From contig CBDCJO010000002.1 in the NCBI GenBank assembly GCA_965217865.1, forward strand, positions 2,624,001 to 2,688,000: DNA of 64,000 nt, given 5' to 3'. The stretch is from Candidatus Latescibacterota bacterium (lineage in GTDB: Bacteria > Latescibacterota > UBA2968 > SICM01). Shown in pieces: positions 13,701-28,632 of this stretch. The translations under genes and the position numbers were made by a program. The notes beneath the pieces are model-generated. The model did not search any database, had not been told where the DNA came from, and saw nothing but the letters and a program-made list of their open reading frames with translations. Position 1 is the stretch's first letter; every line of letters starts with the position of its first letter.

Positions 13701-14885
13701 ATGATATTTGAAAGAAATAAGCCACATGTCAATGTTGGGACCATTGGACACGTAGGCCACGGAAAGACAATGCTAACGGCTGCGATTACCAAGGTTCTGG
13801 CTTTGGCTGGGCTTGCTGAGTTTATCCCTCCTGATGCTCTAGACAAGGCCCCCGAGGAGAGGGAACGCAGGCTCACAATCAAGGCCAGACATGTAGAGTA
13901 CGAAACAGAGATACACCACTATGCTCACGTGGACTGCCCGGGCCATGTTGACTACGTCAAAAACATGATTAATGGTACTGCACAGATGGATGGCGCTATC
14001 CTGGTAGTTAGTGCAGTGGATGGTCCGATGCCTCAGACACAAGAATATATTCTGCTCGCCAGGCAAGTCAATGTGCCTTCCATTATCGTCTATATCAACA
14101 AAACTGATATGGTGGAGGATCCTGACCAGATAGATCTAATAGAACTTGAGACAAGGGATCTTTTAAGCCAATACGGCTTTCCTGGAGATGAAGTTCCGGT
14201 TGTTCGGGGGTCATCATTAAAGGCACTTGAGTACCATGGCCCTGGAGCTGACGAAGCTAAGTGCATCTGGGAGCTGCTCAATGCCATGGATGAATACATT
14301 CCGGTGCCTAAGCGGGATTTCGACGAGGACTTCTTGATGCCGGTTGAGGATGTGTTCACAATTACGGGACGCGGGACAGTTGGCACAGGCCGAATCGAGC
14401 GAGGCGTGGTAAAAATAGGTGATGAGGTGGAGATCATTGGTTTCAGAGAGTCGCGTAAGGCAGTTGTTAAGGGAGTCGAAATGTTCAATAAGATCCTAGA
14501 TAAGGGGATGGCGGGTGACAATGCAGGTCTTTACTTGGGGGGTATAAAGAAGGAGAATTTGACGCGCGGAATGGTAATTGCAAAACCAGGTTCCATTGAG
14601 GCGCACAGTAAGTTTTGCTGTGAAGTCTATGTGTTAACTGAAAAAGAGGGAGGACGAAGCACACCCTTCTCTTCCACATATCGTCCCCAGTTCTATTTTC
14701 GAACGACAGATGTTACCGGGAGTTTTCAACTACCAAACGGGATCGAAAAAGCGATGCCGGGTGAAAAGATGACCATGACAGTCAAGTTGGCATCCCGAAT
14801 CGCTTTGGAGCCGGAACTTAGATTCGCTGTTCGAGAGGGGGGCCTGACTATCGGTGCGGGTGTGGTTACACAAATCCTGGAGTAA
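13701..14885 (+). CDS. tuf: Elongation factor Tu, divergent orphan paralog
   Basis: Full-length 394 aa: [56 protein letters not shown]. Confidence 0.95.
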
Positions 14886-21147: not shown

Positions 21148-21340
21148 ACTCCGACCTCTGCCTTTTGCTTTCCTGCTACTGCCACTTGTTACTGCTACTG
21201 CTTCCCTCGACCTCCGACCTCTGACATCTGACACCCGTCCCGGTTTCCGTCTCACGTTTCACGGTTTTTCTTTCCCTGCTCTTCGATCTTCAATCTTCAA
21301 TTTCCTCTGCCCCCCGACCTCTGACCTCTTACCTCTTAAC
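21148..21340. repeat. Patchwork of degenerate 6-7-mer tandem repeats
   Basis: CCGACCT/CTGACCT, CTGCTA/CTGCCA, TTTCACG/TCTCACG and TCTTCAA units; same family recurs in many intergenic gaps. Confidence 0.7.
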
Positions 21341-24300
21341 AGGCATCCCCACAAATAGCCTGCTGAAGTCATCAACGAGTGGATCCTCCTCTTCCCCATC
21401 GGCAGCTCGCGCAAAGACGATCCCCGGGCGCTTCGCACGTCGCGCCCTTGCTAGCACGCCGTAACCCTTTGGCGCGCTTATTTCTCGCACTTCCTCAGCT
21501 TTCTTGCGTATCTCGAGTTGGACCCGCGCAAGCCCATTTCTCGCCCCGAAAACACGGGCAAAAACCTCTTCAGGCGTCAGGCCATCCCGCCAACCGTTGG
21601 GGATCGGAACAAGCTTTCCTTCCACGTCCGGTACGACCCCGCTGCCGCCCACGTATTGGCGAAGCTGGTGGACGCTACCGCGCGCCCCGCTTTTCGACAT
21701 CAGGATCACCTGTCCTATATTGTTGTCATCATACGCGCGAAAGCTCATCAACCGAGCCTCAACCTCCCCGGCAAAAGCCAGCCACTGATCAGGGTCGTTC
21801 TCCTCCGGTTGGGGTGGGAGATCCAAATCCTCCCCAATGAACGGGCTCACAGATGCACCCATCCCCTTTGCGACCTCGAAACCGAGCCGCATCAGCCGTT
21901 CGGAGGTTTCGAGGGCCTTTTGGCCCCCCTCGTGTTCAACGATGCGTTGCAGGGCGTTAATAAGGGTCCACCTCGTGATGATTCCGTCTTTTCTCCCCAC
22001 CTCGGCGCCCACGAGCTTCCCGATTTCCCCCCATCCTCTGGTGGAAAGACTCAACCAGGCAAGCCCGTACACCGCATCCATTCGGGGTGGAAGCAGATGG
22101 ATCAAATCGGGATCACGTTCAAGATGTGCGGCAACGGAAAGACGATCCCTCGCTTCCTCCTGCCCGGCCTGGGTGATCGGCAGGAAGACAGCGGCCTGAT
22201 CCCCGTCAAAGTCGGCGTTCATCATCTCGCATGCCAGAGGATGGAGGCGAATCACCCGGTCCGGATGCCGAACGGGACGAAATGCGATGAAGGACGTGGG
22301 CGAAAAGGTCGGTGCACGATATACGACCACCCACGAACGTTCCATAATCTTGTCGAGTGCTTTGCTCGCACGTTGACTGCGTTCACGCACCTCCTTCTCT
22401 CCTCCGAGCTCACGGATGACCAAAGGCCCGAATAAAGTCCAGGCGATCTCCTCAGCAAGCCCCACCTGATCGATACGCAGGTCTGGTCCTGGAACGATCA
22501 CCGTGCGTCCGCTGAAAGAAAACCGGCTGGCAAATTGCACGTGAGCGGGTGTGCGGAGGAAGCTCAAAGTGTCGCCAACGCCAAATTGCAAGTGGGAGGG
22601 AGTGAGAAGCACCTCGAAAAGGTCATTTACCCGGGCTTCGAGCTGGCCAACCGCATTCTCAGCCAGTGGATCCGGGGCCTGACTGTCGAGCATTCGTTCC
22701 AACCGCGCGTTGGCCTCCACCAGCGTCTTGAACTCAGGCAAATCCTTTAGCTCCCCCACCTCGGCCAGCGTGTGCTGACGAAGCCAGGGGTGCGGCAGCG
22801 GGCGCACCAGTTTGAGCGTCGCATCCTGAGGCCGTTCAAATCGGAACCTCAGCTTCCCATCCTGGAATTCAGCCAGGATGCCTGCGGCCGTCAGGCGCCG
22901 CACCAGGTCGGCGAATTTCGGAGCCGGGGGTCCAGCCTGCTCCACCACTCCGGTTGCAAGGCGCGTCGCGAGCCTCTCCGCATCGTCCCGGTCAGTCGCA
23001 AGCGTGTTGAAAACCTCCCGGACGGTCTCAAAGGCCTTCGCCTCACGCAGGGCCTGGTACTCGATTTCACCCACTCCTTGACACCTGCTTTTGTCCACCG
23101 AGGCGTGGATCTTGTTCCTGACGATGTGAAGGGTGCGCCCCCAGTAGACCCACCCCACCGTGCTCGGACGCTGAAGCTTCCGACCCTTGAGGGTGAGTGT
23201 CTCCATCCCGTCCTTTGTGAAACCCGCTTTCGTGAGGCGCGCGCGAATTTCGGCTTCATCCGGCGCCTTATACGGGGACACTACAGCCGGTTTCCCCTCG
23301 GCCTTCGCAATGCGGCCCATCACCGCCTCTCGAACCTGGCCAAAGTTCATCCGTGATGGGAGGCCGCAAACACTATAGATAAGTTCCACAGGCCTGCCGT
23401 CCGTCAGATGCGGCATCTCATCATCGGGAAGGATGCAGGACACCACCCCCTTGGCCCCGTGTCGGTTGCTTAGCTTGTCGCCCGGCTCAACGGGGTGGGG
23501 GAAGTTAAGTCTTTGGGCGCACGACTCGCTGATCACGACGGCATCTTCAAAAGTATTTGCATCCCAGGAGATGAAAGCGGTCAGAAGGCTGCGTCCACAC
23601 CAGAAGTCGGGTGCATCGGGTTCCGCACCGGTTTGAACATCAGCGGGTTCCGGATCCGGAGGGATCATCCACTGCCGCATCATGTTAGCCCCCATCAGTA
23701 GCCGGTTCGCATCGCTGTGTTCGATAAAGGGGATCATGGAGGCCGAGAGACCGAGGGCCGCCTCAGGACGATCATCGACAACGACCAGCCTCCCGTCGCG
23801 GATCTCGGCGCCATTTGCGATGGTAAGGATGCGGCCAATGTTAGGCCCCTCCGGCGTCTCAAAGGGGCACGTGCGGCCAAAGTGTCCGGGTGCCAGCACG
23901 TTTTCCCTGTCAGGTATGGACAGTCGTCGGAGAAACGTACGCCTGGCCAACCAGTTTGAACGATAGACAGGACCTTTCCCTTCAAGCTCATAGGCATTTA
24001 GATCAAAGAACTCCCGCACCCACGCGTCCAGAAGAAGCCACGTTCGGGCAAGCGGAGCGTCCCAGTGAAGGTTTTCTGGGGCTTCCCCCAGATGCGCCGC
24101 GATGAAGTCGTAGGCCTGTTCCCCGACGGAACGGATCTCAGCAGTCTCGAGCCTATCGTGAGAAGCGACAGGGGGCACCACCTGGCTTTCCCCATCGATC
24201 TCGAAGACCCCATCCGGATCCGGCTGCGGGATATCTTTGTAATCAATCTCTACCTCACTTTCTTTTCCTTGAAGAACGACCTTCACGTCACAGGTATAAG

Positions 24301-24424
24301 TGCCCGTCGACTTAACACGGTATCCAGCCAGAGGCAGCCGCTCACCCAGAAGTTGCGGCAGCCGTTTTTGAACAAACAGGTCCCACGACGCTTTATGCCA
24401 CGGGGCAGCATCGTTAGCGCTCAT
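21329..24424 (-). CDS. Miniaturised single-chain RNA polymerase beta/beta-prime fusion protein (1031 aa)
   Basis: RpoB motifs in order: IRSVGE, GRTCPFETPEGPNIG, IPFIEHSDANRLLMGANMMRQ, FEDAVVIS, PGDKLSNRHGAKGVVS, PSRMNFGQ, HIVRNKIHA, GEIEYQAL. Then RpoC motifs: clamp helices, FSGRTVIVPGP, RAPT, HPLACEMMNADFDGDQ, SGARGS..LRQ, GARNGL. One uninterrupted frame. Confidence 0.9.
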   Translation of the reverse strand: MSANDAAPWHKASWDLFVQKRLPQLLGERLPLAGYRVKSTGTYTCDVKVVLQGKESEVEIDYKDIPQPDPDGVFEIDGESQVVPPVASHDRLETAEIRSVGEQAYDFIAAHLGEAPENLHWDAPLARTWLLLDAWVREFFDLNAYELEGKGPVYRSNWLARRTFLRRLSIPDRENVLAPGHFGRTCPFETPEGPNIGRILTIANGAEIRDGRLVVVDDRPEAALGLSASMIPFIEHSDANRLLMGANMMRQWMIPPDPEPADVQTGAEPDAPDFWCGRSLLTAFISWDANTFEDAVVISESCAQRLNFPHPVEPGDKLSNRHGAKGVVSCILPDDEMPHLTDGRPVELIYSVCGLPSRMNFGQVREAVMGRIAKAEGKPAVVSPYKAPDEAEIRARLTKAGFTKDGMETLTLKGRKLQRPSTVGWVYWGRTLHIVRNKIHASVDKSRCQGVGEIEYQALREAKAFETVREVFNTLATDRDDAERLATRLATGVVEQAGPPAPKFADLVRRLTAAGILAEFQDGKLRFRFERPQDATLKLVRPLPHPWLRQHTLAEVGELKDLPEFKTLVEANARLERMLDSQAPDPLAENAVGQLEARVNDLFEVLLTPSHLQFGVGDTLSFLRTPAHVQFASRFSFSGRTVIVPGPDLRIDQVGLAEEIAWTLFGPLVIRELGGEKEVRERSQRASKALDKIMERSWVVVYRAPTFSPTSFIAFRPVRHPDRVIRLHPLACEMMNADFDGDQAAVFLPITQAGQEEARDRLSVAAHLERDPDLIHLLPPRMDAVYGLAWLSLSTRGWGEIGKLVGAEVGRKDGIITRWTLINALQRIVEHEGGQKALETSERLMRLGFEVAKGMGASVSPFIGEDLDLPPQPEENDPDQWLAFAGEVEARLMSFRAYDDNNIGQVILMSKSGARGSVHQLRQYVGGSGVVPDVEGKLVPIPNGWRDGLTPEEVFARVFGARNGLARVQLEIRKKAEEVREISAPKGYGVLARARRAKRPGIVFARAADGEEEDPLVDDFSRLFVGMPVKR

Positions 24425-25023
24425 TCCATCTCCTCCGATCCGGTTTCAAGGTCCTGCCATTCCTGCGCGATTCGCCTTCGTCCGTGATACAGGCGAGACT
24501 TGACGGTGCCCTCCGGAATGCCGAGCCTCTCAGCGACCTCTCGGACATCCATCTCCGCGTCGTAAATCATACGGAAGATATCACGCTTATCTTCTGGTAA
24601 TTCATCGATAAATTGCCGGAGCAGCTTGCCTTGCTCGGTCAGTTCCAGGAGGGCGTCCGGACCGAGGGTTGCGGCGTCTATCATCCAGCCGGGAGCTGAG
24701 CTTTCCTCATCATCGCTGGAATTCGGCAGGATTTCAAGGGGTTGCTCCCGTCGCCGCTGAACAGAGCGAAGGTGGTTGAAGGCCAGGTTGCTCGCGATGC
24801 GGAACAACCAGGCCCGAAAAGGGCCCTGATCGTTCCACTGCTCCGCACGGTTCCATACCCGCAGGAAAACCTCCTGCACCAGGTCCTCTGCCGCAGCCTT
24901 GTCCCGAACAAGCCGGGACAGATGTGAGAAGATCGCCTCGCTGTAGCGGTTGTACAGTTCCCTGAACGCGAACGCATCGCGCTTCAGAATCCGCTCTACG
25001 AGATCTCTATCGGCCTGCTCCAT
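24421..25023 (-). CDS. ECF-type sigma-70 factor
   Basis: Region 2 AEDLVQEVFLRVW...FRAWLFRIASN; region 4 EVAERLGIPEGTVKSRLYHGR; stop overlaps the next start (ATGA). Confidence 0.92.
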   Translation of the reverse strand: MEQADRDLVERILKRDAFAFRELYNRYSEAIFSHLSRLVRDKAAAEDLVQEVFLRVWNRAEQWNDQGPFRAWLFRIASNLAFNHLRSVQRRREQPLEILPNSSDDEESSAPGWMIDAATLGPDALLELTEQGKLLRQFIDELPEDKRDIFRMIYDAEMDVREVAERLGIPEGTVKSRLYHGRRRIAQEWQDLETGSEEME

Positions 25024-25042: not shown

Positions 25043-25069
25043 GGACACCGACGCAGTTCCTGAGGTTCA
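25043..25069 (-). promoter_or_regulatory. Putative ECF-type promoter upstream of the sigma gene
   Basis: Minus strand TGAACC-N16-TGTCC about 20 nt before the ATG; fits the generic ECF -35 AAC / -10 GTC pattern. Confidence 0.4.
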
Positions 25070-27654: not shown

Positions 27655-28632
27655 CTACCTGCTACTGCTACTGCTACTGTTTTTCCCGACCTCTGACCTC
27701 CGAACCCTGGCCACTGCCTTTTCCCCGTCTCCTCCAACCACCTTGGAAACCGCACTCACGTGATCCGGTGTCAATCCACAACATCCGCCGATTGCAGCAA
27801 CCCCGGATTCTACCCAGCCCTTGGCAAACCGGGCAAGCGTGTCCAATTCGATGTTCTCGAATTGCCAGTTGGGCATCTTGAAATAGCCGCTGTCCGGGTA
27901 CGCGTACACGGGCCCGCTGAATCGGGATGAAACAACCTCCAGGGCATCGGCAATCAGGTCACTCGGGGTGTGCATCAAACCCGCAGCCACAATCCCGGGT
28001 CGGTCGGCCAGTCCAACGATCTCCTCAAGCGAAAGATCTTCGTCAGACGCATATGACAAAACGCGACCATCCTCACCCCTTCGCGCCGAGAATCCCATCC
28101 AGACCGGAAGCCCGGTTTCCACAGCAGCGGCTGCAGCGATTTCGATCCGTTCCGGCAGGTACATCATCTCGAGTAAAATCAGGTCTACACCACACGCCTT
28201 CATCGTCGCCGTCATTTCGCCGAAGGTGTCTCGCAGTTGTTGGGCGGAAGGCTTCGGCATCCCCGGATACCCTTCCGTCCAATGGGAAAGGGACCCGGCC
28301 ACCGCGATCCCCTCGACACCGGCAAGCTCTCGAGCCCTATGTGCGATCTCGATAGCCGCTCGATTCACCTCATCAAATCGATCCCCGTACCCCGCCGCCT
28401 CCAGCATCGGCCTCGACGACGAGAACGTATTCGCCGTCACGACTCGAGCCCCCGCTCGCACGTAGTCGACGTGAATCTGCTCGAGCACATCGGACTGTTC
28501 GACGCTGGCCACCGCGCTCCAGGCAGCGTGATCCATCGACACGCCCCGCCGTTCCAATTCCGTCCCGATACCGCCGTCCAGAACAATCAGTTCTTTGGCG
28601 TCCAGCTTCTTCTGAATCGATTCATACGACAT
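27655..28632 (-). CDS. Homocysteine S-methyltransferase family protein
   Basis: LDGGIGTELERRG, HVDYVRAGA, IGGCCG zinc motif; C-terminus reads into an intergenic repeat. Confidence 0.88.
   Translation of the reverse strand: MSYESIQKKLDAKELIVLDGGIGTELERRGVSMDHAAWSAVASVEQSDVLEQIHVDYVRAGARVVTANTFSSSRPMLEAAGYGDRFDEVNRAAIEIAHRARELAGVEGIAVAGSLSHWTEGYPGMPKPSAQQLRDTFGEMTATMKACGVDLILLEMMYLPERIEIAAAAAVETGLPVWMGFSARRGEDGRVLSYASDEDLSLEEIVGLADRPGIVAAGLMHTPSDLIADALEVVSSRFSGPVYAYPDSGYFKMPNWQFENIELDTLARFAKGWVESGVAAIGGCCGLTPDHVSAVSKVVGGDGEKAVARVRRSEVGKNSSSSSSR

Follow-up and report, generated by a model that had tools for sequence, protein, structure and literature searches.

A fused RNA polymerase-like protein with no apparent trigger loop, encoded beside an ECF sigma factor in Candidatus Latescibacterota

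Introduction

The trigger loop is regarded as central to how fast and how faithfully all cellular RNA polymerases work, and deletion of the trigger helices slows nucleotide addition thousands-fold. Can a recognizable relative of RpoB and RpoC be maintained without one, and what might such a protein do beside a sigma factor? The question is raised by a gene in a 64,000-nucleotide stretch of DNA from a Candidatus Latescibacterota bacterium (assembly GCA_965217865.1, contig CBDCJO010000002.1, positions 2,624,001 to 2,688,000; “the window,” whose numbering is used below), which encodes a single-chain mini RNA polymerase (“mini-polymerase”) next to a sigma factor of the extracytoplasmic function (ECF) group. 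An original prediction, drawn from the letters of the window, held that the protein lacks the trigger loop and has a remodelled bridge helix, and proposed either a slow maker of short RNAs or an anti-sigma factor or decoy that mimics RNA polymerase.

Results

Loss of the trigger loop across the family

The gene, and the elements at its 3′ end on which the argument turns, are as follows.

21329..24424, minus strand: mini-polymerase gene, fused beta/beta-prime, 1031 amino acids (open reading frame, Pfam, profile alignments, model)
21479..21574, minus strand: bridge helix, residues 951-982 (model helix; profile alignment to host RpoC 739-779)
21458..21478, minus strand: seven-residue loop, 983-989, in place of ~500 deleted beta-prime residues comprising the cleft, trigger helices and loop, and jaw (alignments, model)
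21341..21457, minus strand: tail, residues 990-1028, which probably corresponds to the C-terminal block of beta-prime from switch 1 to switch 5 (hhalign, model, dN/dS)

The six-residue bridge-helix motif occupies residues 960-965, position 21547 being the first base of residue 960, and the region under study is the final 72 codons and stop of the open reading frame. The predicted count of 66 residues after this motif is exact, against 597 in the host RpoC, and it is typical of the family: of 120 aligned sequences, all but one have 62-81 residues beyond the motif, and the exception has 109. Three trigger-loop patterns matched none of 120 family proteins and a fourth, loose pattern matched four; PF04998 (Rpb1_5) was found on 0/114 matches; and aligning the host trigger segment to real family proteins gave scores no better than aligning it to shuffled ones (mean 26.9 versus 27.3). 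The stretch from residue 961 to 1007 spans 41-53 residues in 201 family proteins and exactly 47 in 169 of them. The pattern extends to a distant set of 146 new representatives, 111 of which match a profile of the bridge helix and tail; in 105 of the 111 these two elements lie in one stretch, whose length departs from that of the profile by -13 to +14 residues. A trigger-loop profile matched all six long fusions in that set (1613-2522 amino acids) and none of the 140 other representatives, many of these fragments. Judged by these sequence comparisons, the loss of the trigger loop that had been predicted for this protein is real and family-wide.

The original prediction looked to longer homologues as a sign that this copy is simply truncated. 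The best 119 of 1108 homologues (passing 1e-30) have 1002-1106 amino acids and are 50-62% identical at 99-100% coverage, and the longer homologues are 17 canonical-type proteins with 23-30% identity. The gene occurs in 65/168 genomes of the phylum. Ratios of nonsynonymous to synonymous substitution rates (dN/dS), from 12 non-independent pairs, are 0.22 for the whole gene, 0.14 for the beta core and 0.089 for the tail; the tail is thus the most constrained region, which argues that the end of the mini-polymerase is not a truncation. Independent contigs (run X1, records 2 and 4) cover 21190-21547 with 0 differences and no gaps, so that the stop codon is not an assembly error. Short or split copies do exist. 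The same genome holds, outside the window (G000:C2:2438875-2439606), a second, 5′-truncated copy that encodes the last 233 amino acids at 88% identity and lies near a partial duplicate of the neighbouring aldo-keto reductase together with an insertion sequence; it reflects either duplication or strain mixture (contamination 9.3%). In both Chthonomonadaceae loci the mini-polymerase is split over frames (L009:5911-9059 and L011:5446-9307), by frameshifts or sequencing errors. For the copy in the window, homologue lengths, spread, tail dN/dS and matching contigs together rule out truncation, decay or assembly error, the probability of which we consider negligible.

The bridge helix and the tail

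The bridge helix turned out to be remodelled in sequence only, and only in part. It is modelled by AlphaFold2 as an unbroken helix of 32 residues (951-982), and the E. coli helix has ~37 according to passages of PMC4227799. Its first half aligns to RpoC, whereas the second half scores 19 in that alignment, with 20 for shuffles; dN/dS is 0.16 at 941-965 and 0.33 at 966-986, the second half being variable. On the alignments and the model, the helix is near canonical in length and only its second half is without canonical sequence.

The predicted likeness of the tail to the C-terminal region of beta-prime is present and weak. In hhalign the match has P=0.0033 and a probability of 9.7%, and the mean local score is 34 compared with 22 for shuffles. 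In five or six canonical proteins the profile match falls where it should, at a distance of 15-45 residues from the end; the model gives a helix-turn-helix-strand-helix arrangement (helices 990-996, 1000-1009 and 1019-1025), and the helix spacing, judged by eye, fits the beta-prime block without gaps. Covariation (effective number of sequences ~150) is mostly lineage noise, and the pairs 1024-456/472/635 and 980-457 fit the canonical placement weakly. From its sequence, the tail is likely the beta-prime C-terminal block, or last clamp segment. Structural comparison did not confirm this placement: a search with the whole model returned only beta chains, and a model of the beta-prime half had a low-confidence tail.

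Could a trigger be hidden here, with helix 990-996 and residues 995-1001 as a remnant of the trigger tip, or be brought in by a separate small protein? We hold this to be improbable. An echo of the trigger-loop tip at 995-1001 is faint (hhalign P=0.089, probability 0.6%), and R996, within the helix, is present in 189/201 family proteins; yet the echo is not conserved at its key positions (residue 995 is mostly M, in 103 proteins, or R, in 85, and H stands at 999 in only 62/201), and the same residues also fit, free of gaps by eye, the switch-1 helix that precedes the C-terminal block. After the bridge helix the model has the seven-residue loop and short helices, with no space for a helical hairpin, which makes a structural trigger-helix equivalent unlikely as far as the model goes. 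A search of the ESM Atlas gave only Rpb1_4-type leads, all below 0.9. Supply in trans has precedents, in that Orf7 appears to provide the trigger for yeast pGKL2 Orf6 (passages of PMC2919709 and PMC6211774) and Gre factors can substitute for the loop (PMC4756841). However, no third gene recurs in the loci, and a search of the host genome (96% complete; host-derived queries and PF04998) found no separate gene for a trigger loop, jaw, lobe or flap, although a very diverged partner would escape it; Rpb1_5 occurs only on rpoC, and there is one GreA-family gene.

A pruned and fused copy of RpoB and RpoC

The order of Pfam domains, Rpb2_3, Rpb2_6, Rpb1_2 and a weak Rpb1_4, is that of beta followed by beta-prime, with Rpb2_6 and Rpb1_2 above the Pfam cut-off; residues ~1-527 form the beta-like part and ~528-1031 the beta-prime-like part. 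Across two long matched stretches the protein is 26-32% identical to the host subunits. The host genome has a complete rpoB (1300 amino acids) and rpoC (1360) at other sites, and the mini-polymerase is thus an additional, pruned and fused copy. Its AlphaFold2 model, built from an alignment of 93 sequences, has a mean predicted local distance difference test score (pLDDT) of 93 and a predicted template modelling (TM) score of 0.91. Superposition of the beta half on RpoB gives Z 29.9 and a root-mean-square deviation (rmsd) of 2.7 Å over 518 residues, and the beta-prime half matches RpoC chains in Foldseek with TM scores of 0.52-0.61 and rmsd of 7-12 Å.

Both double-psi beta-barrels, the metal triad and the beta-side lysines are present, all features of the two-barrel polymerase superfamily, to which the protein belongs by its predicted fold and its motifs. 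Only RNA polymerase families match it in Pfam and NCBIfam, and no anti-sigma domain was found; the NCBIfam scores are far under the cut-offs (169 versus 801 bits for rpoB, 137 versus 964 bits for rpoC). It is neither a canonical RpoB or RpoC nor a member of a known anti-sigma family, nor is it YonO-like.

In a thinly sampled tree of 40 family members and 16 canonical sequences, the family members group together on a long stem of 0.8, with support 0.79, separate from the canonical proteins. Named relatives come from Ca. Latescibacterota, Poribacteria, Hydrogenedentes, Chloroflexota, Phycisphaerae, Brocadiia, Chthonomonadaceae and Gemmatimonas, and none of the phage or plasmid records covers 80% of the mini-polymerase. 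One genome (G070) carries two separate sigma and mini-polymerase modules (L025, L055), 51% and 39% identical to the window protein. Two short beta-beta-prime-like fusions of 1613 and 1948 amino acids (P0362 and P0352), both with a trigger loop, are possible intermediates or viral enzymes. A literature search of mostly openly accessible articles found no paper that describes the family.

Elements lost and kept

Canonical sites were mapped onto the mini-polymerase through profile alignments, and four further elements were placed in this way.

23489..23527, minus strand: junction of the whole-flap deletion, residues ~300-312 (profile positions 299 and 301 align to 829 and 1071 of 7xya_C)
23447..23482, minus strand: beta-side catalytic lysine motif, residues 315-326 with K317 and K325 (conserved in 93 sequences; aligned to RpoB)
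22607..22738, minus strand: clamp helices, residues 563-606 (profile alignment, model), where sigma domain 2 docks in canonical enzymes according to passages of PMC6648896
22199..22219, minus strand: catalytic metal-binding motif, residues 736-742 with D738, D740 and D742 (family alignment, pattern)

Deleted according to these alignments are the lobe, fork loop 2, the entire flap, switch 3, zinc finger, clamp head and lid, as well as the rudder together with the greater part of switch 2, and the region of the cleft, trigger and jaw. The names are those that we take to apply by correspondence with E. coli. The clamp helices and F-loop are kept, and the metal triad is intact in 112/120 family proteins, its pattern recurring in 60 of 67 distant near-full-length representatives. 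Twelve residues (D294, K317, K325, R358, H433, E192, N195, R250, Q251, R640, R703 and P705) are invariant or at least 90% conserved among the 93 sequences; the first nine we presume, from roles in E. coli, to bind the second metal, the nucleotide and RNA. In the tail, R993 and A994 are present in 201/201 family proteins.

Where the rudder is deleted, the window protein carries an insertion of its own, which resembles a local duplication; contigs from two runs cover it with 0 differences.

22535..22573, minus strand: private insertion of ~17 residues around 615-631 (gap columns in the family alignment; pLDDT <50 at 618-630)

Comparison with known polymerases

Canonical RpoB and RpoC working with an ECF sigma factor share with the mini-polymerase both barrels, the metal triad, the beta lysines, the RNA-binding pocket, the clamp helices, the F-loop, the first half of the bridge helix and likely the C-terminal block. 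The mini-polymerase differs in being one chain of 1031 residues instead of 1300 plus 1360, in lacking, at the sequence level, the trigger, jaw, lobe and flap together with fork loop 2, switch 3, the zinc finger, the clamp head, the lid and the rudder, and in standing beside intact rpoBC in a clade of its own. Full-length beta-beta-prime fusions (PRK09603 and PRK14844 type) have the same fusion order and are its best NCBIfam matches; they are ~1900-2900 amino acids long and 23-30% identical to it, and the six long fusions among the distant representatives, unlike the mini-polymerase, all keep the trigger loop.

The closest architectural parallel is yeast pGKL2 Orf6, described in passages of PMC2919709 and PMC6211774 as a 982-residue fused and pruned two-barrel chain without trigger, lid or rudder. 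Orf6 is also without switches 1 and 5, the later beta-prime regions being carried by the small subunit Orf7, whereas the mini-polymerase apparently has its C-terminal block in cis and no partner gene is seen in its loci. YonO of the B. subtilis prophage SPbeta is likewise a single chain of ~100 kDa with two barrels and no trigger-loop homology (passages of PMC5467207); it is a very distant phage lineage, and the mini-polymerase is a clear pruned RpoB/RpoC, chromosomal and tied to an ECF sigma factor. Phage P23-45 gp64 and gp96, QDE-1 and phi14:2 gp66 are reduced single-chain two-barrel enzymes that, unlike the mini-polymerase, retain part of the trigger loop, as far as passages of bioRxiv 2022.12.01.518664 describe them. 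Archaeal PolD DP2 is a two-barrel polymerase that works without the usual bridge-helix apparatus; passages of PMC6355029 describe it as a DNA polymerase in which a KH-like domain takes the position of the bridge helix, and the mini-polymerase has no such domain.

The sigma factor, its promoter and the operon

Upstream of the mini-polymerase, and in the same direction, lie the two elements that would tie it to regulated expression.

24421..25023, minus strand: ECF sigma factor, 200 amino acids (stop overlaps the polymerase start by 4 bases)
25044..25069, minus strand: conserved ECF-type promoter-like site, TGAAC and GTGTC separated by 16 bases (20 bases ahead of the sigma start)

The sigma factor has sigma2 and sigma4 only, with a -35/-10-type site before its gene. 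It is found directly upstream in 10 of the 12 first loci (the other two have no upstream DNA) and in 21/30 further short-flank loci, a set that includes the window locus and seven repeats of first loci. When seven of the nine misses were refetched, the sigma gene appeared ~2 kb upstream, separated from the polymerase by an ABC exporter gene; in all, sigma is present in 15/15 refetched regions, with a passenger gene between sigma and polymerase in 8/15. The exporter (ABC_membrane plus ABC_tran, ~590 amino acids) lies on the same strand inside the operon in two genera (L043:348-2141, L044:2333-4093, L045-L049). Another passenger, a 381-residue protein without a Pfam match, lies inside the operon in G079 and was not found in the window's own genome; in G060 the same promoter motif is followed by a homologue with 53% identity, and no mini-polymerase match was found there (L056:367-1512 and L078:358-1449 for this pair of proteins). 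In L045/L081 (G071) the sigma factor apparently lacks ~50 sigma2 residues in frame, and the polymerase frame is open. ECF58, considered as a possible published precedent, was set aside, since no polymerase is named in the passages of bioRxiv 2019.12.11.873521 and of PMC8999054.

The promoter halves are invariant in 11/11 aligned upstream regions, nine of which have the 16-base spacer. In the window's own genome the strict pattern gave 2 sites against 3.6 expected, one of them before this sigma gene, and the loose pattern gave 20 against 21.8 expected, which is chance level. Among 30 fetched promoter matches over 30 genomes, 14 lead into this sigma gene and no two others share a downstream family; at the true spacing there were 38 matches, ~16 of them the module's own, versus 10 with a spacer one base longer as a control. 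By these patterns we found no regulon beyond the sigma-polymerase operon. The promoter thus appears to serve only this operon, which makes the mini-enzyme the likely output of the switch and counts against a mere anti-sigma factor.

The anti-sigma proposal of the original prediction nevertheless deserves to be weighed in a wider form, as a sensor or decoy: the clamp helices would hold the sigma factor, and the pocket would only bind a ligand (an RNA-DNA hybrid, a nucleotide or an RNA polymerase antibiotic), so that under transcription stress sigma would be released or the inhibitor soaked up. The gene does stand in the position of an anti-sigma gene, with its start overlapping the sigma stop, and no other anti-sigma gene, nor any third gene, recurs across the first loci; the clamp helices are retained with nearly all DNA-gripping parts gone; and an exporter shares the operon in two genera. 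The linker between sigma2 and sigma4 has a motif (residues 110-124) conserved as strongly as the domains themselves (0.78 versus 0.71 and 0.72, n=15 sequences), unlike ECF linkers in general, which passages of PMC6648896 describe as not conserved. Yet a sigma/anti-sigma pair needs targets, and none beyond the operon is common to the loci. Several clamp-helix positions that are sigma contacts in canonical enzymes are changed in the family profile. Moreover, a 1000-residue enzyme with conserved catalytic residues and both barrels under purifying selection far exceeds what a sigma trap needs. The pure anti-sigma proposal, which draws on gene position, is weakened by these points, and we consider a sensor or decoy rather unlikely.

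Discussion

What the mini-polymerase may do

The slow or non-processive enzyme of the original prediction is a fair reading. We tentatively favour, at somewhat less than an even chance, a slow, error-prone and non-processive enzyme, probably switched by stress, which would extend an RNA-DNA hybrid by a few nucleotides once the sigma factor is switched on. The conserved promoter would be read by the host core with this sigma factor: according to passages of PMC6648896, ECF sigma2 docks at the clamp helices and sigma4 at the flap tip, and since a fixed -35/-10 spacing needs the flap, which the mini-enzyme lacks, the host core is the likely reader. Sigma would then switch on its own operon, with the mini-enzyme as its output. 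A cleft left open by the absence of lobe, jaw, lid, rudder, fork loop 2 and switch 3 would not keep an elongation complex stable, and each nucleotide addition would be slow for want of trigger helices; short RNAs or 3′ extensions would then be the products. The clamp helices would probably bind the partner sigma, for feedback or local opening of DNA. Passages of PMC4227799 state that rapid nucleotide addition needs the trigger helices, and trigger-helix deletion lowers RNA cleavage 13- to 3300-fold (PMC4756841).

The same evidence bears on a fuller role, in which the mini-core and its own sigma factor would be a complete private transcription machine with an active site re-tuned as in YonO. 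Precedents are YonO itself (passages of PMC5467207) and the function of PolD without a bridge helix (passages of PMC6355029), and the new invariant arginines of the tail would suit such a machine. Sigma factor, promoter and enzyme are co-inherited; sigma and polymerase identity matrices correlate over 20 loci (rho 0.71, reached in 0/2000 permutations), a result that shared descent alone can produce. This machine would, however, have no flap to place sigma4 and no lobe, jaw, lid, rudder or switch 3, and no regulon is visible; the family's net charge (median -32) is more negative than that of the host subunits, and its ancestry is in cellular RpoB and RpoC, whose chemistry depends on the trigger helices. 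On balance a private machine seems unlikely.

Several observations weigh against the slow, non-processive enzyme that we favour. The triad is altered in 8/120 close family members and the metal-motif pattern is missing in 7/67 distant ones, and N736 is changed in 26/120; a strict polymerase would tolerate such changes poorly, and the triad changes speak for the sensor or decoy. The conserved pocket would equally suit a non-catalytic protein that binds a hybrid or an inhibitor, and a sensor is also in keeping with the conserved linker motif of sigma and with the passenger exporters. The strict promoter pattern missed the module's own upstream region in L051-L054, and a regulon with a looser promoter could escape detection. 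Finally, YonO has no trigger-loop homology and is described in passages of PMC5467207 as being as efficient as the cellular enzyme and more processive, so that loss of the trigger need not mean a slow enzyme.

Other features of the window

Between the convergent genes at the 3′ end of the mini-polymerase, positions 21150-21330 hold a pyrimidine-rich low-complexity repeat, with similar text near 27700 and 32050; it is likely a dispersed intergenic repeat, as many contigs from elsewhere map there. Farther away, 13701-14885 encodes what we take, by its motifs, to be a stand-alone divergent EF-Tu-like protein, away from the main ribosomal cluster and followed by transposase fragments.

Significance

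Very reduced phage and RNA interference enzymes keep part of the trigger loop, whereas here a recognizable descendant of RpoB and RpoC appears to have lost it cleanly, and selection maintains this form in several phyla, in one of which more than a third of the genomes carry it. That these proteins form a widespread, undescribed class of chromosomal single-chain polymerases, with no trigger element, as the sole output of a sigma switch and making short RNA primers or signals, is close to an even chance but a little below it. If a class free of the trigger loop is confirmed, it would be a natural minimal transcription enzyme present in many bacterial phyla; if the protein is instead a sensor or a sink for inhibitors, it would be a new way of monitoring transcription stress. 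With a single chain of 1031 residues, what a bare two-barrel core can do and which parts the use of sigma needs become directly testable, and the answer bears on whether bacteria run a second RNA-making enzyme for products other than messengers.

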